DNA of 64,000 bases from NCBI GenBank assembly GCA_963769885.1, contig CAVYNH010000004.1:224001-288000 (forward strand), read 5' to 3'. A program made the translations under genes and the position numbers. This DNA comes from Methanobacteriota archaeon. Its GTDB lineage: Archaea > Thermoplasmatota > E2 > DHVEG-1. The notes below the pieces were generated by a model. It saw nothing but the letters and a program-made list of their open reading frames with translations, did no database searches and was not told the origin of the DNA. Positions 1-48,860 of the stretch are shown here, in pieces; positions within the stretch are counted from its first letter, which is position 1; every line of letters begins with the position of its first letter.

Positions 1-2
1 AA

Positions 3-5591: not shown

Positions 5592-5624
5592 CTAGAATCA
5601 AAAGAGATTAATCAGGAAAAAGGT

Positions 5625-5735: not shown

Positions 5736-5760
5736 CGAAGCCGCAACTCTAAAAAATATT

Positions 5761-6300: not shown

Positions 6301-6309
6301 ACTTATTGC

Positions 6310-6888: not shown

Positions 6889-7179
6889 ACGACAATCCCC
6901 TACAACAGCTCTGATCAATTAATAGGTAGGTTTGTGAATCTGCTGAAGAAGATCTCGTTCTTCTCGGGTGAGATATTTTTCCCGCAGAGTATCTTCAGAG
7001 TCAAAGAACATAGAGCTCTTTCCTCCTTGATAATCAAGAGACGCTAACAGGTTAAAAAATTGATTCAAAAACAGGTAGAAAATAAATAGAAAATATTTTC
7101 AATTCATGGTGGTAAAAAAAGAGGAAAAGAGGGGAAGGAGTGTATTTTCCCTCTTGAGTCCTGGTTTGGTTCGAATCAT

Positions 7180-13228: not shown

Positions 13229-13431
13229 TTTTATTTTCACCAGACCATCGAGCTTCGCTCGGCTATAGAAATATATTTTCAAAATACGTGTGAAACACCT
13301 TTAAAACAATTAAAATTTATAACAGCAAGAGAAGGATGAGTGAACGGAAATAAAACTCTTTATTTTCTAATGATGTATGAATCATCGTTCCCGAATTATG
13401 CGTCAAAGAGAAAAAAAACCGTAGTAATCCG

Positions 13432-14355: not shown

Positions 14356-14421
14356 GAATAACCCCCCATATAACTGATTGTTTTTCTAATAGGGATAGTA
14401 GATATCGATTGGATTGGCCAG

Positions 14422-14781
14422 CTATGGAACGGTTATTGACTTCGTGTTAAAGCCGAATAGAATGCAATACGCTGATACAGTGATAACATCTCCAGGGTTC
14501 GCAGATAGGTTATATTCATATTTGTTGAGGAAAAAGCTTGGCTGTCTAGAATAGAAATGCACTTGATCTACCACGCCATTTTTTTCGACCTCAATCCGAT
14601 AGATATAATGGATGGAACGAACCGGAGTTGCATGGGACACAGTCACCTTTAAGGTATGGGTATTTGCTTGATATTGAATCCTAAGGTACCGTGGCGGGGT
14701 AGCGTCGACGTTCTGGTGTACAAGAGATAAACTCATGAACAGGACGGTAATAAAAATCCCAGCGATTTTCAGGTATTTCAT
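14422..14781 (-). CDS. Secreted small beta protein, remote superoxide-reductase-like fold
   Basis: Signal peptide; VTVSH..IHYIYRIEV..AYCILFG pattern. Confidence 0.5.
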   Translation of the reverse strand: MKYLKIAGIFITVLFMSLSLVHQNVDATPPRYLRIQYQANTHTLKVTVSHATPVRSIHYIYRIEVEKNGVVDQVHFYSRQPSFFLNKYEYNLSANPGDVITVSAYCILFGFNTKSITVP

Positions 14782-16413
14782 CTACACCCCTCCTGACTCC
14801 ACCGTGATATGCCAAATTTCACCAGTAGTCAGTATCGGACCGACGGTCCGTTGGGTCAGTACATACAACTCACCGGATTCATCTGCTCCGATACCCATAA
14901 TGCGAAGATTCAATGGTTTATCGCCACTCAGACGAAACTCCATGTGCTTCCAAACATTTGGTGCACTCTCATTCATATAGTAGAGTTTTCCTCGGGGCTG
15001 GAAATAGGTAGCACTCCAGTCGCCATAGACGTAGTTACCGACAAGCGAAGGAAACTGAGTACCTCGATAGACAACCCCACCGATGACACAGTGGCCAACG
15101 TAATGGCTGTAATCATAGACTGGTGGAGAAAGCGAACTGATATTTATTCCAAGTAACGTGGCTAATGCTGGGTCATAGAGATGATTTCCTTCCATGATCC
15201 TCCATCCGTAATTACCTCCCTTCTGAACGATATCGATTTCTTCCCAGAGGTCTTGGCCAACATCGCCGACAAACAGCCGGCCGTTCAGACTGTCAAAAGA
15301 AAAACGGAATGGGTTACGGAACCCGTACGCGTAGATTTCATCAAGTCCATCCACACCGACAAATGGATTGTCCTCTGGTACGCTATACGGAGTACCGTGG
15401 TCAACATCGATCCGTAATATTTTTCCAAGCAACGTACTGATATTCTGTCCATTGCCGATAACCCCATGCGGGTCGCCCTCACCGCCACCGTCACCGACCC
15501 CGATGTAGAGAAAACCATCCGGCCCAAAGGCAAGTTGTCCGCCACAATGGTTGAAATCAGGTTGTTTGATACTCAGAATGATTCTTTCAGAATTTGGATC
15601 CACCATATTGGAATTATTCGCAAAGACCTGATATTCAGCAATAATGTCCAGATGATCTACGCCAGATTCATTTGCTGGGGCTGTATAATACACAAAGAAG
15701 CGATGGTTAGATATGAAATCAGGATGAAAAGCCAACCCCAACAATCCGCGTTCATCATACACGGGTATGAGTTTCACAATTTTCTTTGACAAATCGAGGA
15801 AAGGCGTAGATTGGAGAACGCCGTTCTCAAGGAGGAGAATTTTGCCGGTTTGCTCAGCAATATAAAGGCGACCTGAGCCATCACCAGCGCCTGTTAAAAT
15901 AATTGGTGCCTTCAAACCGCTGGCAATAGGATCAAGGCGAACAGCCAATGACTCTTCTAATCCAGGTAGGAGGGTCACTCGAATTCCGGTGACATGTGCT
16001 CTTGCAGTGGTTGTTGTAGTGTTCGCATTTGAAGCGTTTACAGTTGCTACAACATTGATTTTTCCAAATCCTATAATGAATGGTATTTTGACAATAGAAA
16101 CGCTGCCTGGGAAAATCAGGGGGATTGTGCCTGATGCTTTTTTACCAACAACGACCAGTCCACCAGATAATGTAACACTCCAATGAACATTGGTTGCATT
16201 GATACTGCCTGTATTTATAATAAAAGCACTCATGCCGAAGAGCTCATTGATTTTATAATCAACATTAAAACCGCTACTAACAAAATCAATTCCAAGTGTA
16301 GTCATAGCTGTTGTTTTATTTTCTGACGCCAGAACCTCTGAATGTAGTACCGTGGCAACACTGGCAAAACTTACTAGCATGGTGCAAAAAAAGGTTATGA
16401 TTTTTTTCCCCAT
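14782..16413 (-). CDS. Secreted PQQ-dependent sugar (glucose/sorbosone) dehydrogenase with N-terminal Ig/CARDB-like domain
   Basis: ERGLLGLAFHPDF, NHCGGQLAFGPDGFLYIGVGDGG, YAYGFRNPFRFSFD, GGNYGW. Confidence 0.9.
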   Translation of the reverse strand: MGKKIITFFCTMLVSFASVATVLHSEVLASENKTTAMTTLGIDFVSSGFNVDYKINELFGMSAFIINTGSINATNVHWSVTLSGGLVVVGKKASGTIPLIFPGSVSIVKIPFIIGFGKINVVATVNASNANTTTTTARAHVTGIRVTLLPGLEESLAVRLDPIASGLKAPIILTGAGDGSGRLYIAEQTGKILLLENGVLQSTPFLDLSKKIVKLIPVYDERGLLGLAFHPDFISNHRFFVYYTAPANESGVDHLDIIAEYQVFANNSNMVDPNSERIILSIKQPDFNHCGGQLAFGPDGFLYIGVGDGGGEGDPHGVIGNGQNISTLLGKILRIDVDHGTPYSVPEDNPFVGVDGLDEIYAYGFRNPFRFSFDSLNGRLFVGDVGQDLWEEIDIVQKGGNYGWRIMEGNHLYDPALATLLGINISSLSPPVYDYSHYVGHCVIGGVVYRGTQFPSLVGNYVYGDWSATYFQPRGKLYYMNESAPNVWKHMEFRLSGDKPLNLRIMGIGADESGELYVLTQRTVGPILTTGEIWHITVESGGV

Positions 16414-16761
16414 AGCATAGCTCCTTATATCGTAGAATGATAAAATATGAAGCCATTTATAGTAATATCTATAAAATGATTTAAAAACATATAAAAAATG
16501 TCTACAAAACAGATGTTCAATATTTTATGTCCTTAGAAAAGGCAATCCATTTATTAGAAAAAACCGAATCGTCTTTTCGTTGAATACTATTTAATTGCTT
16601 GGAGTAGTTCTTTTACAATGTTTCGCCGATCATGTTTCGACATTTTCTGCCGGATTCCTATCGCCTTACAGTTTCTGATGCACTCGATGCCTCAAACTCA
16701 GATTGAAATTACTTCGTATGGCGCATACCTTCGCTTAAGGCAAAGAAAAAAAGAGGAATGA

Positions 16762-17535
16762 TTACCCGATGTACCGGATATCCTCGGGTTTCTCCTTGAC
16801 CATGCTCTCCATCTCGTTAAGCTGCTGCGCGATGTACTCGATCTCCCGGGCCTTCTCCTCAAGCCTCGAGTAGTCGACCTTGATGTTCACCGCCTTCGTC
16901 AGCACCTTCAATACGGCCTTCGCGCTCTTCGGGTCCACCAGATACCCGGGCGTCTCGCCCATGAAGCACGTCCCGGCGATCCCACGCAGCTTCCCCAGCC
17001 CAAGCAGGAGACCGCTGGCGCCGATGATCCCGCCGCCCGGCTCGTTCTTCTTGAACACCGCACCGTACTTCTTCGTCTCCTTGACGAACTTCACGTCCGT
17101 CGTGGCAAACAGGACCTTGGGCTCCTTGATCTCCCGGCCCAGCCCATAGCCGCCCAGCGTGAACATATGCGAGACATGCAGTCTCTGGATCACGTTGAGG
17201 ATCGACTCGGCCAGCTCGTACTGCCCTTGCGACGACAGCCCCTGATAATCCCCAGTCAACAGGACGAGGTCATGCTGCCCCTTCTGTTTGGCCCGCCAGA
17301 AATAGAACTCGTTGTTCACCAGTTTCACCGTCCCATCCGGGTTAATGAACACCTGTGGTGGAAAATCCTTGCTATACAACTCGGCGAACTTCGTCGCCTT
17401 CAGCGTCTCAATCAAATGCTCCACGGCAAGCTTCCCGACGTTCCCAATCCCCGGCAGCCCCTCAATCAGAATCGGCGCCTTCAACTTCGGAATCTTCGCC
17501 GTGTACTTAATCGTGACCAGATTCATTTTCAGCAT
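16762..17535 (-). CDS. Proteasome assembly chaperone (PAC2 family)
   Basis: IEGLPGIGNVGKL, MGETPGYLVDPKSA; conserved position after nop10. Confidence 0.92.
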   Translation of the reverse strand: MLKMNLVTIKYTAKIPKLKAPILIEGLPGIGNVGKLAVEHLIETLKATKFAELYSKDFPPQVFINPDGTVKLVNNEFYFWRAKQKGQHDLVLLTGDYQGLSSQGQYELAESILNVIQRLHVSHMFTLGGYGLGREIKEPKVLFATTDVKFVKETKKYGAVFKKNEPGGGIIGASGLLLGLGKLRGIAGTCFMGETPGYLVDPKSAKAVLKVLTKAVNIKVDYSRLEEKAREIEYIAQQLNEMESMVKEKPEDIRYIG

Positions 17536-17690
17536 GCCTCCAGTTTCTTCAGCGCCCGGCGGTATTTCCCGTAATGATCCTGCGGGGAGAACCGCGCGGG
17601 TTTATTCACTATCGTCCGCCCTTTGCACTGCGGACAGACATCCTGCAGGGTATAACAATGACATTCTCGACAGAAATGAATCGCTGCCAT
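17529..17690 (-). CDS. nop10: H/ACA RNP protein Nop10
   Basis: YTLQDVCPQC...PARFSPQDHYGKYRR. Confidence 0.93.
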   Translation of the reverse strand: MAAIHFCRECHCYTLQDVCPQCKGRTIVNKPARFSPQDHYGKYRRALKKLEAC

Positions 17691-17694
17691 AGGC

Positions 17695-18480
17695 CTACTC
17701 GACGATCTCACGCTTGAACTCGAACTCGCCCTTGCCCTTCATCTTCGCCTGGACGCGTTCCACCGCCTTTTTCATCTGGTGCTCCGCGACCTTATAATCC
17801 GGCGCCTTCACCTTAATGATGTACCGAGGCGCGCTAATGTACTTCACCTCGATCGTCACATCCTCATACTCCGTGGACTCCGCAGTGGTCAGCGCCTCCT
17901 TGATAAACGAGACGCCGTTCGGCAGCGCCGACGACACCATCAACATCCCCTTGATCTCCACGAACGGGATGCTGATACTCTCCTTGGAAATCTTCTCAAA
18001 CGACTGGAGCCACTCACCGGAAAACCCGTCCTTCACCAGCGTGTTACAGTCGTACGCGCACTCCTCAAACGCCACATACAGCGACCCGTACTTCTTGATG
18101 AGCGCGTCGCCGAACTCACGGTAACAGGCCTCCACCGGCTTGTTGAGGTTCTTGGCAACCATCTCGAAGAGCCGCGTAGACTTCTGCGTGTTCTTCCATT
18201 CCTGGATCTTCTCCCGGCGCTGATGGTCGTTGACCTTCTTCAGCGACAGGTCGATGTGGTTCTTCTGCACGTCGACATTGACGACCTTGCAGACCACTTT
18301 TTGCTTTTCACGCACAAAATTGCGAATCCGCTTCACCCACCCGGTCGCAATCTCAGAAATATGAATGAAGCCTTCCTTCCCAGCGTACTCGTCTAAAGAA
18401 ACGAAGGCACCAAAATTCTGCACCTTAGTAATCGTACCGACAATAAGCTCCCCGTCGTCAGGGTACTCCTTCTTTTGCAT
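17695..18480 (-). CDS. eif2a: Translation initiation factor aIF-2 alpha
   Basis: S1 domain YPDDGELIVGT..GFIHISEIATGWV, HIDLSLK, YISAPRY; true start MQKKEY. Confidence 0.96.
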   Translation of the reverse strand: MQKKEYPDDGELIVGTITKVQNFGAFVSLDEYAGKEGFIHISEIATGWVKRIRNFVREKQKVVCKVVNVDVQKNHIDLSLKKVNDHQRREKIQEWKNTQKSTRLFEMVAKNLNKPVEACYREFGDALIKKYGSLYVAFEECAYDCNTLVKDGFSGEWLQSFEKISKESISIPFVEIKGMLMVSSALPNGVSFIKEALTTAESTEYEDVTIEVKYISAPRYIIKVKAPDYKVAEHQMKKAVERVQAKMKGKGEFEFKREIVE

Positions 18481-18493
18481 ACGTAGGTGGACC

Positions 18494-18670
18494 TTATTCG
18501 ATCGTCTCGAGAATGGTCCCTTTGATCTTCGCCTTGCCACCCGTCGGGGTCGCAAGGGTGCTGCTGCAGATGTGACAGAGCACCGTGTTGCTCGCCTTGT
18601 CGAACATCACCTGCTCGTTCTCGCAATCGTTGCAGCGGACCTTGATGAAGCGGCTCTTCGGCTGATCCAT
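18494..18670 (-). CDS. rps27e: 30S ribosomal protein S27e
   Basis: Hand translation: MDQPKSRFIKVRCNDCENEQVMFDKAS..CHICSSTLATPTGGKA; not in the ORF track. Confidence 0.95.
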   Translation of the reverse strand: MDQPKSRFIKVRCNDCENEQVMFDKASNTVLCHICSSTLATPTGGKAKIKGTILETIE

Positions 18671-18676
18671 ACTCGA

Positions 18677-18958
18677 TTATTCTCCTTCAATCTCAAACTT
18701 CTTCGACCGGATGCTGGCCGGCTGATACGTCTTCTTACAGATCGTACACGTGTACCGCGTGGCAATCCGCCGACTAGTCTTCTCCCGGCCCTCAGGCTTG
18801 GGCCGAGGGAACCCGCCATACCCACTCGTCGCACGCCGGAACCGGCGCTGACCGCGCTTCAGCTCACTCGCCTTCCGCTTCTTCATCCTGTCGACTTCTT
18901 GGAGCGTATGCTTCTTGCAGTACGGGCAGTAATGCTTGACCTTCCCAGGCATCTTCAT
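18677..18958 (-). CDS. rpl44e: 50S ribosomal protein L44e
   Basis: YCPYCKKHT..GYGGFPRP..CTICKK. Confidence 0.96.
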   Translation of the reverse strand: MKMPGKVKHYCPYCKKHTLQEVDRMKKRKASELKRGQRRFRRATSGYGGFPRPKPEGREKTSRRIATRYTCTICKKTYQPASIRSKKFEIEGE

Positions 18959-19025
18959 GGGTATCACGAGGTGGTACTAAGTATGGAGGGTAATAAGGAG
19001 GTTGTATATAAAAATGATAGGTGGT

Positions 19026-19682
19026 CTACTCTATGGGGACGAGGATGCCTCGTCTGAGGAGCGGCTCAGCCATCTCGGCCGGCAGCGTCAGCACGTCGTC
19101 CGCGCGCAGCTCATAGACGCGCAGGTCAGTGCCCACGAACGGCGGCATCGTCTGCGCCACCCGCAGTATCGGATGCGGGTTCGCCTGCACCTTCGAAACG
19201 ACCGGGGCTGCAGGCACCGGAGGCGCGGGTGAAGCAACGGGGGCCTGCGGAGGTGTTTTCAGGCTCGAGGCGACCGGGACCGAAGAGGCCGCAGACTCTT
19301 CTGGAGAGGATTCTTCGCCGAGGACCGCCTGCCGCGCCCTCGAAATCTCCCGCAACAGACGTTCATACAACGGTTGCTCCTCCTCCGCGAGGTTCCTAAT
19401 ATCGGGGACGCCGCCGCGGGCCGCGACCAACGCTGCCGCCACGATCTTCTTCTCCCGCAACTCATAGATCCCGGCGACCAGCTTGCGCGTGTTCGCCAAC
19501 TCCTCCGCAAACAACCGGCTCTTCTGCTGCTGCCTCTCAGATGCCACGCTCGACTCCAACGCCTTGAGGTACGCCGCGACATCATGGTAGTAGCCGGTCT
19601 CTAACTTTGTAAGGACTGCCGCGTTTTGCTCCGCCTGCTGCACCTTCCGCAACGACTTGTAGCTGACCGCTGGCTCCTCCAT
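19026..19682 (-). CDS. GINS replication protein (Gins51-type)
   Basis: A domain (LTKL..YY..RExKIV..NLAEEE) plus B domain (PPFVGTDLRVY..DVLTLP); adjacent to rpl44e as in the conserved cluster. Confidence 0.85.
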   Translation of the reverse strand: MEEPAVSYKSLRKVQQAEQNAAVLTKLETGYYHDVAAYLKALESSVASERQQQKSRLFAEELANTRKLVAGIYELREKKIVAAALVAARGGVPDIRNLAEEEQPLYERLLREISRARQAVLGEESSPEESAASSVPVASSLKTPPQAPVASPAPPVPAAPVVSKVQANPHPILRVAQTMPPFVGTDLRVYELRADDVLTLPAEMAEPLLRRGILVPIE

Positions 19683-38041: not shown

Positions 38042-39046
38042 TTATGTTCCGAGTTTGCTGAGCTGGTCGGCGATGATGGCGTCGGGGACTGGGGCGTAGC
38101 CGTTGGTGATGGTGAGTTGTTGGCCTTCGGTTAGGATCCAGCGGACGAAGTCGCGGGTTGCGCCTGTGAAGTTGTTGAGGGTGACGAGATAGACGAGTCT
38201 GGCGGGTGGGGCGTGGAGGTTGCCGTTGATCTCGGCGTTGACGATGTCGGTGCGGGTGGTGTAGATGGTTTCGTTGGCGTCGAGTTTGCCGTTGCCGTTG
38301 AAGTCGATGGGGACGACGACGAGGCCGGTCTTGGGGCGTAGGGTGGAGTTGGAGTAGATGTAGTTGACGTTGCTGTAGCCGATGCCCAATTGGTCGCTGA
38401 TGATGGAGGCTGACATGCTGTCGTCTCCTTTGACCTTGGTGACGGTTTCGACGGTGGGGAAATCGTCTTGGGTGTAGTTGCCCAGGAACTTCGCCCAGGT
38501 TTCTGCGGCGCCGCAGACGTCGGAACGGGAATAGACCTTGATGACGTCGGTGACGGTTGTGTCGTTGACGAGCGTGCCCCAGGTGGTGATGTTGCGGGTG
38601 ATGAAGACGTCGCGGAACTGTTGCTGGGTGAGGCCGGTGGTGGTGATCTTGTCTTTGACGGGGTTCGCGTCGTTGATGGTTGGGAGGACTGCGTCTTTGA
38701 CTACGGCAACGAAGACGATGCCTTTGTCTGCTTCAGCGGTGGTGACGTCTCGGGAGACCATGCCGAGGTTGACGGTGCCTGCGAGGGCGTCGGACATGCC
38801 TTTTCCGGCGCCGCCGGATGAGACGTCGATGCGGATGTTGGTGTGGTTCTTTTGGTAGGTTTGGGCCCAGACGACCATCATCGGGTATAGGCTGTAGGCG
38901 CCTGAGACCTTGATGGTGTTGGTGGTTTGTTGGCTGGTGCAGCCGCTGAAGCCGACGACGACGAGGGTGGTGGCGAGGAGAAGCGTTGTGACGGCGAGCA
39001 GGGTTTTGCGCTCAGGCCTGTGGGTTCCTTTCCTTTCTTTCATCAT
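38042..39046 (-). CDS. pstS: Phosphate-binding lipoprotein PstS
   Basis: Lipobox FSGC; SGAYSLYP, GGAGKG, GMVSR. Confidence 0.9.
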   Translation of the reverse strand: MMKERKGTHRPERKTLLAVTTLLLATTLVVVGFSGCTSQQTTNTIKVSGAYSLYPMMVVWAQTYQKNHTNIRIDVSSGGAGKGMSDALAGTVNLGMVSRDVTTAEADKGIVFVAVVKDAVLPTINDANPVKDKITTTGLTQQQFRDVFITRNITTWGTLVNDTTVTDVIKVYSRSDVCGAAETWAKFLGNYTQDDFPTVETVTKVKGDDSMSASIISDQLGIGYSNVNYIYSNSTLRPKTGLVVVPIDFNGNGKLDANETIYTTRTDIVNAEINGNLHAPPARLVYLVTLNNFTGATRDFVRWILTEGQQLTITNGYAPVPDAIIADQLSKLGT

Positions 39047-39117
39047 GAATCTGTCTCCTTTTTTGGTACTGGTAAGCGTGACATTGCCTACCCCATGGCC
39101 GTACCATAGGCGCCCGG

Positions 39118-39177
39118 GTATTTAAAAGTATTGGTAAATATTGGCAAAATGCCAAAATTGGAAATTTATTGGAAAAC
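39118..39177 (-). promoter_or_regulatory. pstS TATA box with upstream TTGGNAAA repeats
   Basis: TTTTAAATA on the minus strand at ~39119-39127; TTGG(T/C/A)AA units at 39131, 39141, 39158, 39169. Confidence 0.45.
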
Positions 39178-39294
39178 AGCCATGAAAATCAGCGTATTCG
39201 AGCCCAATCCTGTGACAACGGGGTTTTCGCGGAAAAAAAGCAAAAAACAGAAAAACAGCGAAAGGGGGAAAAAGAAAGGGAAAAAAGGCGCCGG

Positions 39295-39702
39295 CTATTT
39301 GAGCCAGACGCGTATCTGCGGGCGGTTCTGTTTCTCCTCGACCTTGGTCGCGATCTTCTCTTCGCGGGCCAGCCAGCCGAGCGCGCTGAACGCCTCGCTG
39401 ACGTCGATGCGGGCCATCCGGGCAAGCGTTTGAACATCAATCTCGCCCTTCTGGGACAGGACCCCCCAGATCTTGCCGGCGTCCGTGCCGATCTTCGTGG
39501 TCAGGTTCGTGTCCCCGAGCTTGTACACGGTGCCGTTCTTACAGATCTTGTTCTCGCGGGCCAGCCAGCCGATCGCAGCCTGCAGCTCGCGCTCATCCAG
39601 GAGCGTCATCGTCAGGAGCTTCGTCTCTGACAGCGGTCCCTTGCAGTTCAGTGTTTCCCATACCTTTCCAGCATGCTCTCCAAATTGAGTCACAGGTGTC
39701 AT
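39295..39702 (-). CDS. Tandem DUF2582-type winged-helix protein (paralog of 2994-3398)
   Basis: AGKVW..AIGWLARENKI..AGKIW..ALGWLAREEKI. Confidence 0.82.
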   Translation of the reverse strand: MTPVTQFGEHAGKVWETLNCKGPLSETKLLTMTLLDERELQAAIGWLARENKICKNGTVYKLGDTNLTTKIGTDAGKIWGVLSQKGEIDVQTLARMARIDVSEAFSALGWLAREEKIATKVEEKQNRPQIRVWLK

Positions 39703-39893
39703 ACTCTCGAATCCCACCTTCACTTATCGCTAGAAGGTATAGCCTACAAGGTTATTAGTGTTATGATTCTGCGAAGCACCGCGGAAAAAAAATTGAATAG
39801 ACAACGCTGACGCACCCCTATTATTATAGTACTGTGCGGCGCAATCGCCCGTAGGACTCGGATAAGACTCACTTCGCGTTCGGGTCGCTAGCT

Positions 39894-40018
39894 GAAGCAC
39901 GTGAAGGAAGACCGCCGAGTGAGGAGGCAGGAATAACAAGAGAGGGAGATACTAAATGGTTACTGTGACACACAAGGCAGTGCAATACCAGAAGGCGACA
40001 AAGGTTCGAACTGCATAA
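39894..40018 (+). pseudogene. 3' remnant of an IS6-family transposase
   Basis: EAREGRPPSEEAGITREGDTKWL / ..KAVQYQKA aligns with EALNGKTPSEEAGITIEGEDKWL..KSIQYQKA of the intact transposase. Confidence 0.8.
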
Positions 40019-40047
40019 GAATCACATGATTATGCACCGTCATCTAA

Positions 40048-40290
40048 TCAAACAAAAAAATAAAAACTACTCACAATCACCAAAAGTAATCCAAATCCAA
40101 GCCAAATCCCAGCAAGTACCCAAAATCCAACTGGATTCTCTTCTCTATTCAGCGATAATACTTGACTTGAGTACCGAGGAACGAAACGAAGTTCACCCTT
40201 TCTAATGTAATAAATACCGAACGATATTAATCCTATCCCCAAAACAAAGAATATCAGAATTTTTTCTACGCCTACACCTGCTGACATCAC
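40048..40290 (-). CDS. Small two-TM membrane protein (probable cargo of the older element)
   Basis: Two hydrophobic helices around REENPVGFW. Confidence 0.6.
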   Translation of the reverse strand: MMSAGVGVEKILIFFVLGIGLISFGIYYIRKGELRFVPRYSSQVLSLNREENPVGFWVLAGIWLGFGLLLVIVSSFYFFV

Positions 40291-40384
40291 AGGATCAATG
40301 AAAGAATCCGCTGGTTGGTAATAACATTTTTCGAGGTTTGAGTTATCCTCTATTGCTCAAGGAGACCTGTTAGTGACCACAGGA

Positions 40385-40427
40385 CATTCCCCACAGATAA
40401 GTCCCCACATCATTTTTCCACAGAATC
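40385..40427. repeat. Degenerate right TIR of an older related element
   Basis: 28/43 ungapped identity to 47608-47650; ends ..CACAGAATC directly before CACCCCAA. Confidence 0.7.
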
Positions 40428-40435
40428 CACCCCAA

Positions 40436-40476
40436 GGTTCTGTGTAAAACCGTAGTGGGAATTTTGTAGTGGGAAA
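40436..40476 (+). repeat. Left TIR with two GTAGTGGGAA boxes
   Basis: GGTTCTGTGTAAAACCGTAGTGGGAATTTTGTAGTGGGAAA. Confidence 0.93.
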
Positions 40477-40546
40477 ATAGGGTTGGTGTTTCTACAGATA
40501 TGTTTTTAAAGAAAAAATCAATATTAAAACATCTTTAAGAGATGAA

Positions 40547-40867
40547 ATGATGGGTTTCTTCAAGAAGAAAGCAGAGGAGAAAACATCTCATATCAAGAAA
40601 ATTGAAACTGATGATAAAGAATTTGAAGATGTCACATTAGAAAAAAATATTGATGCAGATATCGGATATACGAAACGTGATCTTTACATTGTTCCTGGTG
40701 TTGATGAAGTTGATATCCCAAGGTCAAAGGTAAGGCAGGAGTTTTTAACCAGACCTACGAATTATAGATGTACTAAGTGTAAGAGTATCCTCTATAATAC
40801 GAAACTTGATGGTAGACATTATTATTGCCCAATCTGTAATGTGCAATGGGATAAGGACGATTTATAA
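40547..40867 (+). CDS. Hypothetical protein with C-terminal Zn ribbon
   Basis: CTKC...CPIC. Confidence 0.7.
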   Translation: MMGFFKKKAEEKTSHIKKIETDDKEFEDVTLEKNIDADIGYTKRDLYIVPGVDEVDIPRSKVRQEFLTRPTNYRCTKCKSILYNTKLDGRHYYCPICNVQWDKDDL

Positions 40868-40980
40868 TGCCAATTGATTTGCATAAAACCTTAGTTAAAA
40901 CTGTTTTACTGTTTTTCTGATACATTGGATTTGTGTATTTTAGGTTTGCAAACTATTTAAAAACTTAAAGTGTTTATTCT

Positions 40981-41062
40981 TATGCCACCCCTATCAATCT
41001 CACTCATGTGTTTCGCCAACTATGAGTCTTTTTGATGGGGGTGGTATATATAACCAATTTTT
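40981..41062 (+). ncRNA. Candidate hairpin antisense sRNA against the transposase mRNA
   Basis: TATA TTTAAAAA at 40956-40963; 17-bp outer stem with G-U pairs only on the + strand; 41000-41019 complementary to 42815-42834; downstream T-run. Confidence 0.65.
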
Positions 41063-41127
41063 CTAAAAACAATATATAAAAGAAAAAGAAAAACTATATT
41101 AGATTAGATTAAATTTCTTATTCTAAA

Positions 41128-41889
41128 ATGCCGATTGCTCTAAGTGTATTTGGATTAGACGAAATAGAAGAGAAAATATTTTTAAATGAAACAAAAAAAA
41201 CCTTCTCTTTATCTGATTTCCAATCAAACCTAGATTCAATTGCGGAGATCAAAGATATCCAGCCAGCTACCACAACTTTCACTCGAACATCCTATAATCC
41301 TCAAACAAAACGAGCAAAGTATTATGTCGAGCATTGGACCGATACAAATAAAGAAATCATTCGTGCTTTCCTGAAAGACCCGGACGAATCAATTCTCTAT
41401 GCTGACCAACTTTTAAAACCATTAGCAACTCATAAATTTGAATATGGATTTCAAACCTTAGTTAAACTTAATATCATGATTGATTTCGTGGACAAAGAGA
41501 TTTTTGTTTTTATGAATAAAAGAATCGCTAAACAGATAATAAATCGTTTGGAGGCAGTAGGAGGTTTAAAATCTCTCCCTATTTTCTTGAACTTAAAAAA
41601 CATAAGTTAAAGTGCAGTTGTTCAAGATGTTAATATTGTGTGGGAAGATGAACTGGATGTTAATGTTAAAAAAATCGGATGGATAGGGGTTCAAGTTCAT
41701 AAAGATAAGAGAGTAGATTTAAGCAAAGCAACTGCAATAAAAGTCGAAATAATAAGCAATCAAAAAATCATCCCTGATGTTTTTATTTCTGATGATGCTA
41801 GATTAAGTTCATTGTCCCCTAATGTGGGCACAAGTGAAATGGTCCAGATTTATAAGATATTAAAGGAGAAGACCAAACAATTAAGTTAG
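41128..41889 (+). pseudogene. Unknown ~253-codon gene split by one in-frame TAA at 41608-41610
   Basis: ORFs 41128-41610 and 41638-41889 are in the same frame with open codons between them. Confidence 0.65.
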
Positions 41890-42537
41890 TAGTTTTTTAA
41901 CAATTTCTTGAACCATTGATAATCCTTTAAAGTTAATGCTAACTGTGTTTTCCATTATTATTTTTATTTTAGTTTTAGATTCTTGGTCCTCCATATTGAT
42001 TATGTAATTCTCAATGACAAAGCCCTTTGGTTTTTTTATGCGAATTAATTTCCATTGAAAAGGAAGTTCTAGATCGAGTTTGCAATTCAACAAAGAACGA
42101 AAAATCTTTTTATTGATAAGACCTTCAAAATCAATTATTATCTCACTTATTTTTTTTGACAAATCTCTTAGTCCGGATTCCATTCTTTCAATTTCTACAT
42201 AGACCTCTTTGATAGATACTTTAAAAACAATAACAGAATAATGGCTATTGGAAAAATCAAGTTTTATTTCATTGTCAATTTTTTTTGTTCCTTCACCAAA
42301 CATTGAATGTACTTCATTTTTTATAATATTAAAATCAGTCTCTGTTTCAAAAGTAAAAATCAACCTAGCATTCGCTCCTTTATTTGTAACGATAGCCCAT
42401 TTTTTTCTTAGTCTATTTAAAAGATCATATTTGTCTTCTATAAGTAAACCTATTATCGAACCCACACAAGTAGTAATGATTAGAATAAAGCCGACATATG
42501 TATTAACAAACTCTACTATTGAATTAAAGTCAGTCAG
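41881..42537 (-). CDS. Hypothetical N-terminally membrane-anchored protein
   Basis: Frame is open upstream of GTG 42465, through a TM segment, to CTG 42537, which overlaps the upstream TGA and follows AGGTGA. Confidence 0.65.
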   Translation of the reverse strand: MTDFNSIVEFVNTYVGFILIITTCVGSIIGLLIEDKYDLLNRLRKKWAIVTNKGANARLIFTFETETDFNIIKNEVHSMFGEGTKKIDNEIKLDFSNSHYSVIVFKVSIKEVYVEIERMESGLRDLSKKISEIIIDFEGLINKKIFRSLLNCKLDLELPFQWKLIRIKKPKGFVIENYIINMEDQESKTKIKIIMENTVSINFKGLSMVQEIVKKLLT

Positions 42538-42734
42538 CCTTTTTCACCTTCGTTATTTTCCTTGTTTTGTGCTTTTTCAAGGAGTTCGACTTTTTGTAAT
42601 TCGATAAGTCGTAGTCGTAATGTCTCGTGAACAAATTCGCTTGAATCTCTATAAAGAAACCTTTTGTTATTTACAATTTCATTGATTTTTTTATGAATTT
42701 CAATATCTAAGTTTAGGGTCTTATATTTCGCCAT
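42534..42734 (-). CDS. Ribbon-helix-helix (CopG-like) regulator
   Basis: YKTLNLDIEIHKKINEIV...YRDSSEFVHETLR; divergent from the transposase. Confidence 0.75.
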   Translation of the reverse strand: MAKYKTLNLDIEIHKKINEIVNNKRFLYRDSSEFVHETLRLRLIELQKVELLEKAQNKENNEGEKG

Positions 42735-42826
42735 AACACATATATGGCTTATATATATGTTATACTATTTAAGTATATTTAGATACCTTTAAATAGAGAT
42801 TGTAATATGTAATATTGGCGAAATAC

Positions 42827-43999
42827 ATGAGTGAACGAATAGACATTAAAGAAATGGTGAATGCTCGAAGAGCACGAGGCATGATTCTCCTTGAAAACGG
42901 ATTTGAACCAAAGGAAATTAACTCGAAGACATGGATTGTCCCAAGCCAAACAGGGAACGGCACATATACGGTTCATTATGCGGATGATGAACGGACCATT
43001 TGGAGATGCACCTGCAAAGACTTTGAAATTCGAGGGCTCCCATGTAAACATATCAATGCCGTGAAAATCTGGAAAAATCTCCATGATAGATTCGAGCAAC
43101 TAAACCTTAAAGTGAAACAAAGCATCAGCCTTGGAAACACTGAGACTCAAGGATGCAAATTCTGCCATTCATCAGACATCACAAGATACGGCGTGAAAAA
43201 CGGGAAGCAAGTCTATTTCTGTAAATCATGCAATCGAAGATTCGTGAACAATATTGATTTTGAAAACATGAAGTACAACCCTAAGATAATCGCCTTGACG
43301 CTTGATCTCTATTTCAAAGGGATAAGCCTTCGGAAAATCAGCCACCACCTCAAGCAGTTCTATAATCTGAATATCAGCCACAAGTCCGTGTACAATTGGA
43401 TAGAGAAGTACGTAGGAATCATGAATGAGTATGTGAACAGTATTCAACCTGATATTGGGGGCGTGTGGCATACTGATGAGATGATGGTGAAGGTGGATGG
43501 TTCCTGGGAGTATCTCTGGAATGTAATTGATGAAAGCACTCGATTCCAGCTTGCATCTATCGTTTCAAAGGAACGTCACGTTAGGGATGCACGCATGGTG
43601 TTCCAGAAGGCGAAGAAGAATGCTGGAGGAAGGAAACCAAAGTACTTAGTCACGGATGGACTATTAGCATATCGTGAGGCCGTCAATAAGGAGTTTAATA
43701 CGAATCACGGCAATATTGAGCATCTTTGGAATGTAGGGATACAACATCACCCGAACAACAACCATGTAGAACGGTTACATGGCACTATCCGCCAACGGGA
43801 AAAAGTCATACGAGGAATGAAGATAGAAGAGACTCCGATTATCGAGGGACATAGGTTATACTATAATTTCATCAAGCCCCATGAGGCGTTGAACGGAAAG
43901 ACACCATCAGAAGAAGCAGGGATAACCATCGAAGGGGAAGATAAATGGCTTACTCTCATGAAGAAATCAATTCAATATCAGAAGGCGAATAAACAATAA
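42827..43999 (+). CDS. IS6-family DDE transposase with N-terminal SWIM finger and Zn ribbon
   Basis: SWIM CTCKDF..CKH; CKFC..CKSC; HTH; DDE triad WHTDE, VTDG, NNHVERLH. Confidence 0.92.
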   Translation: MSERIDIKEMVNARRARGMILLENGFEPKEINSKTWIVPSQTGNGTYTVHYADDERTIWRCTCKDFEIRGLPCKHINAVKIWKNLHDRFEQLNLKVKQSISLGNTETQGCKFCHSSDITRYGVKNGKQVYFCKSCNRRFVNNIDFENMKYNPKIIALTLDLYFKGISLRKISHHLKQFYNLNISHKSVYNWIEKYVGIMNEYVNSIQPDIGGVWHTDEMMVKVDGSWEYLWNVIDESTRFQLASIVSKERHVRDARMVFQKAKKNAGGRKPKYLVTDGLLAYREAVNKEFNTNHGNIEHLWNVGIQHHPNNNHVERLHGTIRQREKVIRGMKIEETPIIEGHRLYYNFIKPHEALNGKTPSEEAGITIEGEDKWLTLMKKSIQYQKANKQ

Positions 44000-44059
44000 C
44001 CCCTTCTTTTTTTCTTTTGCCAAAATTAAAGAAGAATCGAACAATATCGAATATCAGTT

Positions 44060-46885
44060 ATGGAAGATGACCTTGTTAAACAAAAAGTACAATCACTCAT
44101 AGATGATTTCAGAAGTAATTATAACGAATACAAGAAAGAATCCGAAGCTAGTATAGAAACAAAACTAATTGAACCACTCTTCAAATGTTTAGGTTGGACT
44201 GAAAAAGATTTTAGCAAACGAGAACGAACACAACGAGAAGGCAAACTAGGTTTTGCGGATTACACGTTCTACATAAAAGATAAGAAAGTATTTTTCCTCG
44301 AAGTAAAAAAGATTGGAGTGCCGTTAGACAAAGAGGCAGATGCACAAGTCGTATCTTATGCTCTATCAAAATCTGTTTCCATCGCAATCTCGACGAATTT
44401 CGAACAGCTCAAAGTGTTTTGTGTCGAAGAAGAGAATTTAGATAAAAGAATGATTTCAATCTTCAAAACACCAGAAGATTACCTTGACAAATTCTATGAT
44501 TTGATTTTACTTTCTAAGTCTAGTTTTGAACAAGATCTCTTAATGAAAAAAGCTGAAGACCTTAATCTATTAAAAAAACGGATAACCATAGATAAACCAC
44601 TTCTTGACAACCTAATTCTTATCCGTAAGTTCATTGCTGATGATATAGAGAAAAAATATTCAGGGAAATATCAACCCAATGAAAAAGAAGAGATCATACA
44701 AAGAATTATCGACAGACTGATTTTCATCAGGAAATGCGAGGACACAGGAATTAACCCAGAGAACCTGACCCTAAAAGATGTCCTCACAGTAACTGATGAA
44801 AAAGCATACAAAAAATTAAAAGAGATATTCGAAGAATACAATACTCGATACAATAGTGGATTATTCGCCATCGATAAAGACAATGAATGCGATAGGATAC
44901 AGATAACTGGAGATATAATTAAAAAACTCATTGGATATCTCTACATTTCCAGAAACGGAGGATACCACTATAATTTCGAATGGATACCTGCCGATATTCT
45001 TGGACAAGTCTATGAACAATACCTTGGAAAGATACTAGAACAAACAAAATCAGGTAAAGCCAAACTAACAAATGGACAGGTACATCGAAAGGAACAAGGC
45101 ATTTATTATACGCCTACCTTTGTCGTTGATTATATCGTAAAAACTACAGTTGGAGAAGTGTTGAAGAATAAAAAAGTAAAAGTAAAGGAATTAAAAATAT
45201 TGGACCCTGCTTGTGGCTCGGGTTCTTTCTTAATCAAAGCTTTTGATTATATCTACCGAAATCAATCAACCGGGGATTCTCAACAATATAGAATTGACGG
45301 TCAAGGGCAGTATTCTGTTAAAACAGAGATACTGAAAAATAATCTGTACGGAGTGGATTTAGATAATAAAGCAATAGAAATAACCAAGTTAAATTTACTC
45401 TTAAAAGCAGCGGAGAAAGGAAGACGTTTACCTGTAGAGATTGACATCAACATAAGACAAGGAAATTCATTAATCGACGACGAATCAATTGCAGGATTGA
45501 ATGCTTTTAAGTGGACCGACAAAACAAAAAATAAGGACAACAGGAAATTTGACGTAGTTATTGGAAATCCGCCTTATATCAAGGTAGAACAAATTAAAAA
45601 AGAAGAAAAAGAATGGATTTATCAAAATTTTGAAAACGCTACTGGAAGAACTGATTTATACGTACTTTTTTTAGAGAAAGCATTAGAGCTAACAAAGGAC
45701 GACGGCCTAATCTCTTTCATTATTCCAAGTATATGGATGAAAGCGAAATATGGAGAAAAACTAAGAGAGAATTTGGTAAGAAACTATCAGATAAAATCAA
45801 TCATCGACTTCGGCGATCTTAAGGTCTTTGAAAGTGTCACCACTTATCCATGTATCATTTTGATTAAAAAGAAGAAACCAACTGGAAACGACACCATCAT
45901 CTATTATAAAGTTCCTAGTTTGAATGAATCAATAATTAACAATCTTGAAAATGCTATAAAAAAGGACTCTTGGATGATTAGGCAAAAAGAATTTGATTGG
46001 AACTTTGCAAATCCACAGGTAAAAAAAATATTCGATAAATTAAACAAATCATCAAAAATCAGGCTAAGTGACCTAAGAGACCAAATTTATGAAGGTTTGA
46101 TTACCGGAGATAACAAGGCTTTTTTTGTTGATAGAGAGACAGTAGAAACAAAAAATCTCGAAAGGGAATTGTTAAAACCTGTTCCAAAAGGAAAAAACAT
46201 CAGACGTTTTTCAATTCGGTGGGAAAAAGAATATGTCATATATCCTTACAAACAGAATATGCTTAAGACTGAACCTGTTAATATCAAAGAATATCCAAAC
46301 GTAAATTCTTACCTTGCTGAATTTGAAAAAAAGCTCACAGCTAGAACCTCAATTAAAGGGACTAACAAAAAATGGTTTGAACATGTTCGTCCTAGAGAAA
46401 AATGGTGGTTTGAAAAACAAAAAATCTTAACTCCAAACCTATCATCAAGTAACAACTTTGCTATTGACGAAGGACGTTCAAATGAATATTTTTATGTTGA
46501 CCATGATGCATATGCGATTACGCTAAAAACAAATAGCAGAGAAGATTTATTGTTTATTTGTGGGCTTCTTAATTCATCTCTTATAGAGTTTTACATTAAG
46601 CAGATAAGTCCTATGTTCTCAGGTGGATATTACAAATATCATACTCAATATCTTGATCCAATCCCGATAATTAAACCATCTAAAAAAGAAGAAATCAGAT
46701 TCGTGAAATTAGTCGAGAGGATTATTCTTCTGAATAAAACATTAACAAAGATTGGCGATAAAAAGACTGCCGAAAGTGCAAAACTCGAAGAAGAAATTAA
46801 GAAAGTTGATAATCAAATCGATGAACTTGTTTTTGACCTCTACCATTTGACCAAAGACGAAAAGGAGATTATTAAAAAATCTTAA
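44060..46885 (+). CDS. Type IIG restriction-modification enzyme (Eco57I/TaqI-like fused REase-MTase-TRD)
   Basis: PD-(D/E)xK ADY..LEVK; GIYYTP; ILDPACGSGSFL; GNPPY; TaqI_C-like C-terminus. Confidence 0.92.
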   Translation: MEDDLVKQKVQSLIDDFRSNYNEYKKESEASIETKLIEPLFKCLGWTEKDFSKRERTQREGKLGFADYTFYIKDKKVFFLEVKKIGVPLDKEADAQVVSYALSKSVSIAISTNFEQLKVFCVEEENLDKRMISIFKTPEDYLDKFYDLILLSKSSFEQDLLMKKAEDLNLLKKRITIDKPLLDNLILIRKFIADDIEKKYSGKYQPNEKEEIIQRIIDRLIFIRKCEDTGINPENLTLKDVLTVTDEKAYKKLKEIFEEYNTRYNSGLFAIDKDNECDRIQITGDIIKKLIGYLYISRNGGYHYNFEWIPADILGQVYEQYLGKILEQTKSGKAKLTNGQVHRKEQGIYYTPTFVVDYIVKTTVGEVLKNKKVKVKELKILDPACGSGSFLIKAFDYIYRNQSTGDSQQYRIDGQGQYSVKTEILKNNLYGVDLDNKAIEITKLNLLLKAAEKGRRLPVEIDINIRQGNSLIDDESIAGLNAFKWTDKTKNKDNRKFDVVIGNPPYIKVEQIKKEEKEWIYQNFENATGRTDLYVLFLEKALELTKDDGLISFIIPSIWMKAKYGEKLRENLVRNYQIKSIIDFGDLKVFESVTTYPCIILIKKKKPTGNDTIIYYKVPSLNESIINNLENAIKKDSWMIRQKEFDWNFANPQVKKIFDKLNKSSKIRLSDLRDQIYEGLITGDNKAFFVDRETVETKNLERELLKPVPKGKNIRRFSIRWEKEYVIYPYKQNMLKTEPVNIKEYPNVNSYLAEFEKKLTARTSIKGTNKKWFEHVRPREKWWFEKQKILTPNLSSSNNFAIDEGRSNEYFYVDHDAYAITLKTNSREDLLFICGLLNSSLIEFYIKQISPMFSGGYYKYHTQYLDPIPIIKPSKKEEIRFVKLVERIILLNKTLTKIGDKKTAESAKLEEEIKKVDNQIDELVFDLYHLTKDEKEIIKKS

Positions 46886-47430
46886 AGACTAAATATTTTA
46901 ATCTCTTTTATTTTTTCATTGACATTTTCAGGAGAGCAACATGGTAAATATTTTTCTGCATTCTTACAAAAAATCGAATCAGTAGAAACTAAGAGGTCAC
47001 AACCTACTTCTAATGCTGTTGCGAGATGAATCGAATCAGAAGCAGAAAGATTAGACTCTTTGCAAATCTTTATTGCCTTTTCGATGGCTACTTCATCTAA
47101 CCAATAAAATTGTACAAATTTATATGGAGTGAAAAACCTGTTTTTGATTTTTGTATAAATTAATTCTAGGGTCTTATCTGATAAATCTTTATCATCCCTT
47201 TTTCTTAAAATTTTTTTAAATGTCCATCCTTCTTTGATTTTTTCATAGATAAATTCATTATCCTTCTGCACACTTAAAGCTTCCATTAATGCAAATTGAG
47301 ATGTAATACAGTCCCATCCATTATTTTTTATTTCCTCTATCAGGTCAATGGAAGGAGTATGTATGCCTTGGACAATGTCAACAATGATGTTTGTATCTAT
47401 GTAAATCTTGGGTTTTATGAATACTTCCAT
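46882..47430 (-). CDS. PIN-domain (VapC-like) ribonuclease
   Basis: IYIDTNII, TSQFALME, DSIHLATA, STD. Confidence 0.88.
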   Translation of the reverse strand: MEVFIKPKIYIDTNIIVDIVQGIHTPSIDLIEEIKNNGWDCITSQFALMEALSVQKDNEFIYEKIKEGWTFKKILRKRDDKDLSDKTLELIYTKIKNRFFTPYKFVQFYWLDEVAIEKAIKICKESNLSASDSIHLATALEVGCDLLVSTDSIFCKNAEKYLPCCSPENVNEKIKEIKIFSL

Positions 47431-47432
47431 AA

Positions 47433-47591
47433 TTAAAATCTTGGCCTTCTTTTTTTGACATGTCTTGATGGTTTCCTTCTTCTACTGAAAAAAACTTTAT
47501 TGGAACTTATAGATTGACCATCCATAGTCTCCTCTGCCTTGCCTTCTGAATAATTAATCTCTGATTTATCATTTTCCTTTTTGTCGGCCAT
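47433..47591 (-). CDS. 52-aa charged peptide upstream of the PIN gene (candidate antitoxin)
   Basis: MADKKENDKSEINYSEGKAEETMDGQSISSNKVFFSRRRKPSRHVKKRRPRF*; stop is 2 nt before the PIN ATG. Confidence 0.5.
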   Translation of the reverse strand: MADKKENDKSEINYSEGKAEETMDGQSISSNKVFFSRRRKPSRHVKKRRPRF

Positions 47592-47609
47592 ACCTGTTAC
47601 CACTCTTGA

Positions 47610-47650
47610 TTTCCCACTACTAAATTCCCACTACTCCCTTACACAGAACC
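47610..47650 (-). repeat. Right TIR with two GTAGTGGGAA boxes
   Basis: Reverse complement GGTTCTGTGTAAGGGAGTAGTGGGAATTTAGTAGTGGGAAA. Confidence 0.93.
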
Positions 47651-47654
47651 CACC

Positions 47655-47671
47655 CCAACAAGGTTTATATA
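47655..47671 (+). promoter_or_regulatory. Probable BRE/TATA of the r-protein operon
   Basis: CCAACAAGG-TTTATATA; the only TATA-like sequence before rpl3. Confidence 0.65.
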
Positions 47672-47867
47672 CCAAATCCGGTATGCCAAGTAATCCTGGT
47701 CCTAACCAGACACGCATCCGGGCAATACCCACCACGGGCACCCCCGGCAAACAACGACCCACCAATCACTTCTTGGGCCGCGGCGGACATGTCACGGTTA
47801 GCGACACACACCACAGCAGGAAACCGAAGGAAACTTCAGTCTTCCAACTCACGGCAGAGGATACATT

Positions 47868-48860
47868 ATGCCAAACATCCACCATCCAAAAAGAGGCTCC
47901 CATGGATACTGGCCCCGCAAACGCGCCGCCAGCCAAACCCCCCACATCCAACGCTGGATCCAGGGCGGCGACAAACCCAAACTCCAAGCCTTCTTCGGAT
48001 ACAAAGCCGGCATGACCCACGCCTTCGTCGTCGACTACCGACCCACCAGCACCACCAGCGGCCGCGAAGTCAAAGTCCCCGTCACCGTCGTCGAAACCCC
48101 CCCTATGAGAATCGCCGCCATCCGCGCCTACCAACGCGACGCCTACGGCCTCCACGTCACCTACGAAACCTGGGCAGACAACCTCGAACCAGAACTCAAC
48201 CGACGCATCCCCATGCCTAAGAAAAAAACCCAGGCTCCAAAAGAGATCCCCACCGACGCCGAAGAAATCCGCGTCATCACCTACACCCAACCCAAACTCG
48301 TCACCGGCGTCCCCAAAAAAGCCCCCGAGATCACCGAAGTCAAAATCGGCGGCGGCACCATCCAAGACCAGATCACCTACGCTAAAAGCATCCTCGGCAA
48401 AGAACTCAAAATCAGCGACGTCGTCAGCGAAGGCGACATGCTCGACACCATCGCCGTCACCAAAGGCAAAGGATTCCAAGGCACCATCAAGCGCCACAAC
48501 GTCAAACTCCTCTTCCACAAAAACAGCAAACACCGACGCCTCATCGGCACCGCAGGCTCCTGGCACCCCAGCTACGTCCAAGCCACCGTCCCCCAGGCGG
48601 GACAAATGGGCTACGCCCAACGCACCGAATACAACAAGCGCGTCCTGAAGATCGGCGACAACGGCACCGAGATCACCCCCGCCGGCGGCTTCCCCAAATA
48701 CGGCGTCGTCCGCAACTCCTACATCCTCCTCCACGGCAGCATCCCCGGGCCCACCAAACGCCTCATCGGACTCCGAGACGCCATCCGCTACCAGCGCGGC
48801 GTCAAAGTCCAAAAACCAGAGGTCACCTTCATCTCAGTCAGCAGCAAACAAGGAGTGTAA
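47868..48860 (+). CDS. rpl3p: 50S ribosomal protein L3
   Basis: PKRGS..WPRKRA, GYKAGMTH, TKGKGFQG. Confidence 0.97.
   Translation: MPNIHHPKRGSHGYWPRKRAASQTPHIQRWIQGGDKPKLQAFFGYKAGMTHAFVVDYRPTSTTSGREVKVPVTVVETPPMRIAAIRAYQRDAYGLHVTYETWADNLEPELNRRIPMPKKKTQAPKEIPTDAEEIRVITYTQPKLVTGVPKKAPEITEVKIGGGTIQDQITYAKSILGKELKISDVVSEGDMLDTIAVTKGKGFQGTIKRHNVKLLFHKNSKHRRLIGTAGSWHPSYVQATVPQAGQMGYAQRTEYNKRVLKIGDNGTEITPAGGFPKYGVVRNSYILLHGSIPGPTKRLIGLRDAIRYQRGVKVQKPEVTFISVSSKQGV

Follow-up and report, generated by a model that had tools for sequence, protein, structure and literature searches.

Genomic setting of the insertion region

We analysed a window of 64,000 nucleotides, contig C4:224001-288000, from the genome of an uncultured member of the Thermoplasmatota (G000). 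All sequences analysed here are metagenome-assembled genomes. The G000 genome comprises 2.09 Mb with a GC content of about 55%, and the host genes flanking the region of interest are at about 60% GC. An AT-rich island (approximately 31-42% GC) is present at 39.9-47.6 kb of the window, between a gene for a winged-helix protein and the gene for ribosomal protein L3. Most of this island is a single intact transposable element, and the remains of a second element are found on its left. The features of the region are listed below, with positions given in window coordinates and the supporting evidence in brackets.

39295..39723, minus strand: host gene for a DUF2582 winged-helix protein, which borders the insertion region on its left (Pfam PF10771, E 6e-34)
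39724..39838: host intergenic DNA (aligns with the element-free intergenic region of G001; no left-end-like score)
39839..39896: stretch of uncertain origin, containing the deletion junction between host and relic (similarity to G001 host DNA weak)
39897..40018, plus strand: relic 3' remnant of an IS6-family transposase gene, from about codon 350 to the stop (tblastn, six-frame translation, blastn, alignment)
40048..40290, minus strand: relic passenger, a small ORF of 80 aa with two hydrophobic segments (ORF list; no Pfam match)
40375..40427, plus strand: decayed right inverted repeat of the relic (three CCACAG-type boxes and the tip CCACAGAATC; weight matrix)
40428..40435: left copy of the 8-bp duplication at the target, CACCCCAA; the relic has the same octamer as its right-flank target (sequence)
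40436..47650, plus strand: intact sister element of 7215 bp (inverted repeat; Pfam; NCBIfam)
42827-43999: transposase of the intact element, 390 aa
44060-46885: type IIG restriction-modification gene of the intact element (Pfam)
46882-47430, minus strand: PIN gene of the intact element (Pfam)
47651..47658: right copy of the target duplication CACCCCAA (sequence)
47659..47671, plus strand: core promoter of the rpl3 operon, consisting of the 5 nt CAAGG at the BRE position and the TATA box TTTATATA at 47664-47671
47868..48860, plus strand: ribosomal protein L3 gene (rpl3), which leads the downstream operon (Pfam PF00297, E 1e-84)

The empty state of this site is seen in a sister species of the same genus and with the same gene order (G001). 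The DUF2582 gene is syntenic in the two genomes with 76% DNA identity, and in G001 it is separated from the TATA box by 272 nt. The G001 DUF2582-rpl3 intergenic region contains no end-like sequence or terminal inverted repeat and no trace of a transposase, and the rpl3 TATA box is present there without any element. The window can be aligned with G001 up to about position 39838. G000 lacks approximately 35 nt of host DNA that G001 has ahead of the equivalent target.

Three further observations concern the surroundings of the island. No Rfam family is found across 39000-48200 at E values up to 0.1. The leader of approximately 190 nt that separates the TATA box of rpl3 from its start codon (47672-47867; loci L022-L032) retains the sequence blocks CCTGGTCC/ACCAGACA, CGGGCAAT and TGTCACGGTT across 12 genomes of the family, and may be a structured ribosomal-protein leader, although it has no Rfam match. 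Additional AT-rich DNA, with 37-43% GC as against about 60% for the host, is present at positions 1-7000 and 13000-16500 of the window, on either side of an ORF of 1917 aa (7180-12933, minus strand). These stretches may also be foreign DNA.

The intact element

The terminal inverted repeats (TIRs) of the intact element are 52 nt in length and 81% complementary. Each begins with GGTTCTGTGTAA and contains two GTAGTGGGAA boxes. The same tip is found in 67 ends of relatives, and the repeats start with GG, as in IS6/IS26. At least six ORFs are present in addition to the transposase.

The transposase passes the curated IS6 model NF033587 over residues 149-354, scoring 134.2 bits against a cut-off of 125, and matches PF13610 with 74.9 bits against 27 (E 9e-21). 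The Mutator model PF00872 gives a match below its threshold (E 9.5e-4), and IS6 is the best family. The catalytic core is preceded by approximately 210 extra N-terminal residues that contain a SWIM finger and an IS1-type zinc module. A 20-nt inverted repeat with 95% complementarity connects a GC-rich hairpin region (41000-41019) with the first codons of the transposase gene (42815-42834).

A decayed relic of a different subfamily

A sequence-only reading of the window had proposed that the DNA to the left of the intact element is the relic of an older sister, made up of a frameshifted 3' transposase remnant, a small membrane gene and a decayed right TIR. Each of these components was confirmed. 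A tblastn search of the whole genome with the transposase of the intact element gives a match at 39780-40003 (E 1e-4). The DNA of the remnant, at about 39897-40002, is 70-86% identical to the 3' ends of transposase genes at five other loci (blastn, E 4e-7); against other genes of the family its DNA identity is about 70%. The remnant represents the last 40 or so codons of the transposase, with a stop codon at 40016-40018, and its frame is shifted by the deletion of one nucleotide between 39959 and 39960. The translation, ...PSEEAGITREGDTKWL and, past the deletion, ...KAVQYQKATK, matches the C-terminus of the intact transposase, ...PSEEAGITIEGEDKWLTLMKKSIQYQKANKQ.

The small membrane gene corresponds to the 80-aa ORF with its two hydrophobic segments, which is missing from the intact element. 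Because homologues exist, namely an 80-aa protein of 75% identity from a JGI metagenome (P0003) and weaker matches in eight related genomes, the ORF is probably a real small gene carried as a passenger. In the eight relatives, neither an element end nor a remnant of a transposase is found close to any of the homologues, which are therefore uninformative on the parent of the relic.

The right TIR of the relic, originally placed at 40385-40427, is identical to the right end of the intact element at 28 of 43 ungapped positions and reaches inward to about 40375. We scored it with a position weight matrix made from 61 distinct family ends at other loci, excluding the ends in the window itself. The 46-mer ending at 40427 scores 25.2 bits and ranks 12th among 4.17 million positions, counting both strands of the genome. 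All 11 positions that rank above it are true element ends, and the unrelated background does not exceed about 5 bits. The comparison of this repeat with the background of a TIR profile had been named beforehand as a test, and the score is far above that background.

The end of the relic has three boxes of the CCCCACAG type and a tip decayed to GATTCTGTGG, the equivalent of the family tip. It matches ends in other genomes (L091 and L092) at 35 of 46 positions, compared with 28 of 43 for its neighbour. Since the box type differs, closer ends are found elsewhere and the transposase remnant has diverged, we assign the relic end to a different subfamily from the intact element and do not regard it as a copy or a duplicated piece of it.

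A scan of 39700-40000 with the weight matrix for the left end of the relic gave nothing above background (best -26 bits). Two candidate traces, GATTCTG at 39765 and the CACCCCTA region at 39813-39820, had been put forward as uncertain in the sequence-only reading; both are host DNA that aligns with the element-free G001, and this part of the proposal does not stand. The likeness of 39846-39867 to the inner left end of a MITE-like unit (L119) was also rejected, as 145 of 500 shuffled sequences reach it. The relic is a right-end fragment, and its junction with host DNA falls somewhere in 39839-39896.

The two elements meet at the octamer. The tip of the relic TIR ends at 40427, CACCCCAA occupies 40428-40435, and the left end of the intact element begins at 40436. 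The relic repeat is therefore flush with the very octamer that was used by the intact element, as had been claimed. The order of the two insertions is read solely from their state of decay, because no pre-insertion allele (the relic without the intact element) was found: an exact 18-mer spanning the junction of relic end and octamer has only 19 unrelated chance matches in the metagenome collection.

Insertion at a fixed distance from the TATA box

On the promoter side of the intact element, the octamer CACCCCAA ends 5 nt before the TATA box TTTATATA, which is kept at the same place upstream of rpl3 in 12 related genomes. We examined the flanks of related elements, located by a search pattern that contains only the inner box and the tip and is thus blind to the flank. 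The pattern has 67 matches in 33 of the 118 genomes of the order, and none when reversed as a control. TTTAWATA is found exactly at +14, a distance equal to the 8-bp duplication plus 5 nt, in 15 of 51 distinct, non-stacked flanks; against a background of 9.6e-4 this corresponds to P = 3e-33, a value that overstates independence, since the genomes are related and two promoters recur (thermosome 11 times, rpl3 4 times), though the duplications and end subtypes differ. The same motif is found at +12 in two flanks and at every other offset in at most one. It is the strongest information in the flanks, with positions +10 and +11 being A-rich.

Near-TATA boxes are present at +14 in several further flanks. 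Most elements appear to obey the +14 rule when these are counted, because an element has two ends and only one of them can face the promoter. The exceptions are a minority of ends that have no TATA box at +14 (for example L002, L007 and L018) or have the box at +12 or +15.

The 8-bp duplications differ at every site, with CTGAACAG, CCTATTGG, AAATACCA, CTCCGTAG and CTTAAGCG found elsewhere, and they are intact wherever both copies are visible. They therefore represent recent, separate events and not one inherited insertion. The site of insertion is set by distance from the promoter TATA box, not by the sequence CACCCCAA. The right end points towards the TATA box in 10 of the 11 cases for which the orientation of the transposase is known (p = 0.012); the counter-case is a complete element (L016/L110) that has its left end towards the TATA box. 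At all sites, both the BRE and the TATA box have been preserved.

The sequence-only reading had further proposed two independent insertions at one point in the same orientation, and site-specific targeting as their cause. The different subfamilies of the two elements and their shared octamer support the former, and the latter draws support from the 15 flanks at +14 and from an rpl3 promoter that is occupied in at least four genomes. Random positions of homologous elements had been named beforehand as the contrary outcome. The positions are not random: in many genomes, 8 bp plus 5 nt separate the element from a TATA box downstream.

Recurrence of stacks at a few promoters

G000 has only 313 TTTAWATA sites, and three of these are occupied: the promoters of the rpl3 operon, of the thermosome gene (identified by NF041083) and of 16S rRNA (Rfam). 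All three loci hold stacks, for a total of six insertion events. An element precedes the thermosome gene, identified in the same way, in eleven genomes. Independent occupation of the rpl3 promoter is seen in at least four genomes (G000, G006, G066 and G103), and in G001 this promoter is empty. A preference for any TATA box would give a much broader distribution than this clustering at a few very active promoters, which suggests that promoter occupancy, or DNA that is bent and underwound at a busy promoter, is part of the landmark, although survival bias could mimic the pattern.

The stack on contig C6 (L122, 779104-783583) lies 427 nt upstream of the 16S rRNA gene. Its first member measures 4.15 kb and has a right end, decayed, at 783255. 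Next come CCTTTTGG, which is one mismatch away from the outer duplication CCTATTGG, a 320-bp unit with a good right end, a copy of CCTATTGG and finally the TATA box. To the left of the element there is ordinary GC-rich host DNA, which marks a virgin site with the same spacing. A second, similar TATA box approximately 150 nt further downstream suggests tandem rRNA promoters.

The two elements on contig C1 have CTGAACAG between them. Positions 1-9682 of this contig are the reverse complement of 9767-19446 with 98.9% identity, and the axis of symmetry lies inside a stacked element, beside a tandem repeat of approximately 190 nt (7782-9112). The symmetry is a genuine inverted duplication or else a fold-back artefact of the assembly, and the mirrored elements were counted once. 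On contig C4 but outside the window, left-end-like sequences of 20 and 37 bits are present at 113082 and 113567, 485 bp apart and in the same orientation, and possibly mark a further pile of family members.

Stacks with an exact 8-bp spacer, in which a right end, 8 bp and a left end follow one another, are also found at L005, L006, L008, L065 and L084, and at L006 three units share AAATACCA. A TATA box at the proper distance accompanies every stack observed. On C4, at L006 and at L008, decay has visibly gone further in the upstream member. In G066 (L100), a remnant-bearing unit adjoins the rpl3 TATA box, and the rule that the unit nearest the promoter is the youngest is therefore not universal.

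Units that retain only a right end

The relic at 39897-40427 is one of at least 11 right-end-only units, found in ten genomes, that start within transposase codons 338-369 (the others include L063, L052/L100, L095, L019, L119, L065, L070, L060 and L082). A right-end-only relic of approximately 500 bp at the thermosome promoter of G001 is nearly identical to the one described here. Some of these units are preceded by host DNA and others by a left end, the latter giving MITE-like forms of approximately 0.67 kb (L119, L019 and L095b). In three units (L052/L100, L095a and L060) the truncated transposase remnant is directly abutted by the right end of another element.

The simplest reading of this regularity is that the last 130 nt or so of the transposase gene are part of a right-end module needed in cis, and that short non-autonomous forms which keep this module are common. 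If the module does make short derivatives common, the relic too may have arrived as a short non-autonomous form, which needed to lose only its left end.

A model for repeated insertion at one site

We propose that the locus records an older IS6-type insertion, now a relic, and the later and independent insertion of a sister element into the same 8 bp, brought about by promoter-distance targeting that is a property of the family. We put the probability of this reading at roughly 0.8. The DNA at 39897-40427 is the right-hand 530 bp or so of an older, non-identical IS6-type cargo transposon. On integration, the right end of that element would have come to lie against CACCCCAA, with 5 nt between the octamer and the rpl3 operon TATA box. 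The element would later have lost its left part, or possibly was already short and non-autonomous on arrival. The 7.2-kb sister would then have entered the same 8 bp in the same orientation, doubling the octamer and displacing the relic upstream. The same eight bases would have been used twice because the family picks a fixed position relative to the TATA box and not random targets.

At the level of mechanism, the transposase would capture its target at the upstream edge of the BRE and make an 8-bp staggered cut at -13 to -6 from TTTAWATA. The right end would face the promoter and the core promoter would stay intact, making the site a safe harbour. The next arrival would repeat the cut, double the same 8 bp and push the resident upstream to decay, with head-to-tail stacks as the product. 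By analogy with IS6, movement presumably follows the copy-in route by way of a replicative cointegrate.

That the relic is no separate insertion, and instead arose from the intact element by duplication or rearrangement or resembles the family by chance, we consider next to impossible. It does lie directly beside the intact element and has a single end left. Chance is hard to reconcile with a profile rank in which only true ends stand higher, and a duplicated piece would not be expected to have another type of box, closest matches in other genomes, a diverged and frameshifted transposase remnant and a passenger ORF that the intact element lacks. Nor do we give much credence to random insertion in which selection alone leaves harmless survivors upstream of core promoters, an explanation that is very improbable here. 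Promoter-proximal intergenic DNA is a plausible safe harbour and both of these core promoter motifs, BRE and TATA box, survive at all sites, but selection cannot give single-nucleotide precision of the kind seen in the 15 flanks at exactly +14, and it accounts neither for repeated use of an identical 8 bp nor for the orientation bias. A different cause of stacking would be attraction of the newcomer to the right end of the relic, with the promoter incidental, as IS30 and IS911 target inverted repeats and IS26 forms arrays in which a new unit lies beside a resident family member in the same orientation. The transposase core here is IS6-type, stacks are very frequent (the three G000 loci and the five others given above), and insertion of IS26-type elements beside a resident copy is established in a review of the family (PMC7986276). 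The targeted conservative route described in that same review, however, needs identical ends and transposases, produces no duplication and adds no copy of the IS (PMC7986276), whereas the duplication here is perfect and the partners belong to different subfamilies whose ends agree at 28 of 43 positions. The first arrival at a virgin promoter, as for the C6 element, keeps the same spacing, stacks occur only at the proper TATA distance, and targeting of ends alone would leave the +14 rule unexplained. Because the IS26 route gives no duplication and requires identical ends, and because virgin sites keep the spacing, IS26-style targeting of the resident copy is unlikely.

Within promoter-distance targeting, the nature of the landmark is a question of its own. 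The transposase could read the BRE/TATA DNA directly, for example through its SWIM or zinc-ribbon domains, with no part played by host transcription factors. This is a serious possibility, though one we lean against: TTTAWATA at a fixed spacing is the strongest information in the flanks, the +10 and +11 positions are A-rich, and the long N-terminal extension with its SWIM finger and zinc module offers candidate DNA-reading domains. Set against it are the 313 TTTAWATA sites in a genome where all six insertions are at three heavily used promoters, each doubly occupied, and the behaviour of an unrelated IS5-like element in G010 (L152:245-300), which encodes a DDE_Tnp_1/DUF772 transposase and an Mrr-type nuclease and terminates 15 nt before the TATA box of rpl3; both of these patterns could also be produced by survival bias. 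The terminus of the IS5-like element (AGTAGTTCCGAAAG.../CAGTACTTCCGAATGCAAAAATCTACCAAGG) is also found just outside IS6-type ends at six or more other loci (in the flanks of L002, L010, L074, L095, L097, L108, L117 and L119), so that stacking at these promoters involves a second transposase family. Its docking near the rpl3 TATA box is a hint of a host-made landmark common to different transposases. The landmark may accordingly be the TBP/TFB-bound, bent promoter of very active genes and not bare DNA, for which the odds are at best about even. More tentatively still, the archaeal pre-initiation complex, with its TBP-bent TATA box and TFB on the BRE, could be a docking landmark for at least two unrelated transposase families (IS6-type and IS5-type), and the strongest promoters could be ordered archives of invasion; targeting of this kind would have its counterpart in that of Ty3 by TFIIIB.

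Comparison with known elements

The family is placed with IS6 by its catalytic core, end tips and 8-bp duplication. As in IS6/IS26, the DDE core scores over the curated threshold and the ends begin with GGTTCTGT; we take these tips to resemble those of IS26 and IS257. In the relic, the transposase gene is reduced to its last 40 or so codons, which are homologous to the same transposase genes. Classical IS6/IS26 elements are 0.8-0.9 kb in length (789-880 bp) with transposases of 213-254 aa and repeats of 15-20 bp, and the review gives one known case of a passenger and, in the text searched, no target preference beyond insertion beside another copy (PMC7986276). In contrast, the elements described here are 4.5-7.2 kb in length, with cargo on both sides of a 390-aa transposase that has a SWIM finger and a zinc module, ends of 41-52 nt with two to three internal boxes, and a placement fixed relative to the TATA box. 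Neither element at our locus is a compact, transposase-only IS of approximately 0.8 kb, the intact sister being 7215 bp long and the relic having a passenger ORF. The classical description of IS6 fails in four ways: size, passengers, long boxed ends and fixed TATA placement.

The closest parallels in behaviour are bacterial. In the TnGBS, ISLre2 and ISKra4 group, insertion takes place a fixed short distance before the upstream element of sigma-A promoters; the right repeat adjoins the promoter, which remains intact (PMC3942029). Like the family described here, these are DDE elements with fixed-distance promoter insertion and the right end towards the promoter, but they have Mutator-like transposases (p-MULT 3/4), whereas ours are IS6-type and use an archaeal BRE/TATA landmark. 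ISH6 prefers an AT-rich motif (PMC3942029). A literature search for archaeal TATA- or BRE-directed transposons found none, the nearest reports being PMC3942029 and PMC7986276.

The family also has a likeness, in its precise promoter position and its accumulation, to certain eukaryotic retrotransposons, although here the mobile unit is a DNA transposon and any tether would be a prediction from the pattern of sites. Yeast Ty3, and also Ty1 and Dictyostelium TRE5-A, target Pol III initiation complexes, and the position of Ty3 is set by a TBP-containing complex. Ty3-type elements and their relics gather at the same highly transcribed genes, which serve as a safe harbour, and tethering of the integrase has been shown by experiment. 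Tn7 uses a dedicated target-selector protein that reads the coding end of a gene, displays target immunity, and is found with tandem elements and relics at attTn7. The reuse of one safe-harbour position, with tandem elements and relics, is shared by Tn7-like elements and the family described here, but no additional target-selector protein is evident in our case.

Implications

If the reading proposed here is true, archaeal DNA transposons locate a safe harbour by their distance from the core promoter. Comparable behaviour has been described for a small number of bacterial elements and for retrotransposons of yeast; our literature search brought up no archaeal report. The transcription initiation machinery of archaea is similar to the eukaryotic one. 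An enzyme able to deliver cargo of several kilobases to a predictable site while sparing the promoter would be a possible tool for archaeal genetics. The stacks would constitute a natural record, open to dating, of successive invasions at a single nucleotide. The same placement rule would also explain why AT-rich defence islands lie directly upstream of rRNA, ribosomal-protein and chaperonin genes in these genomes.
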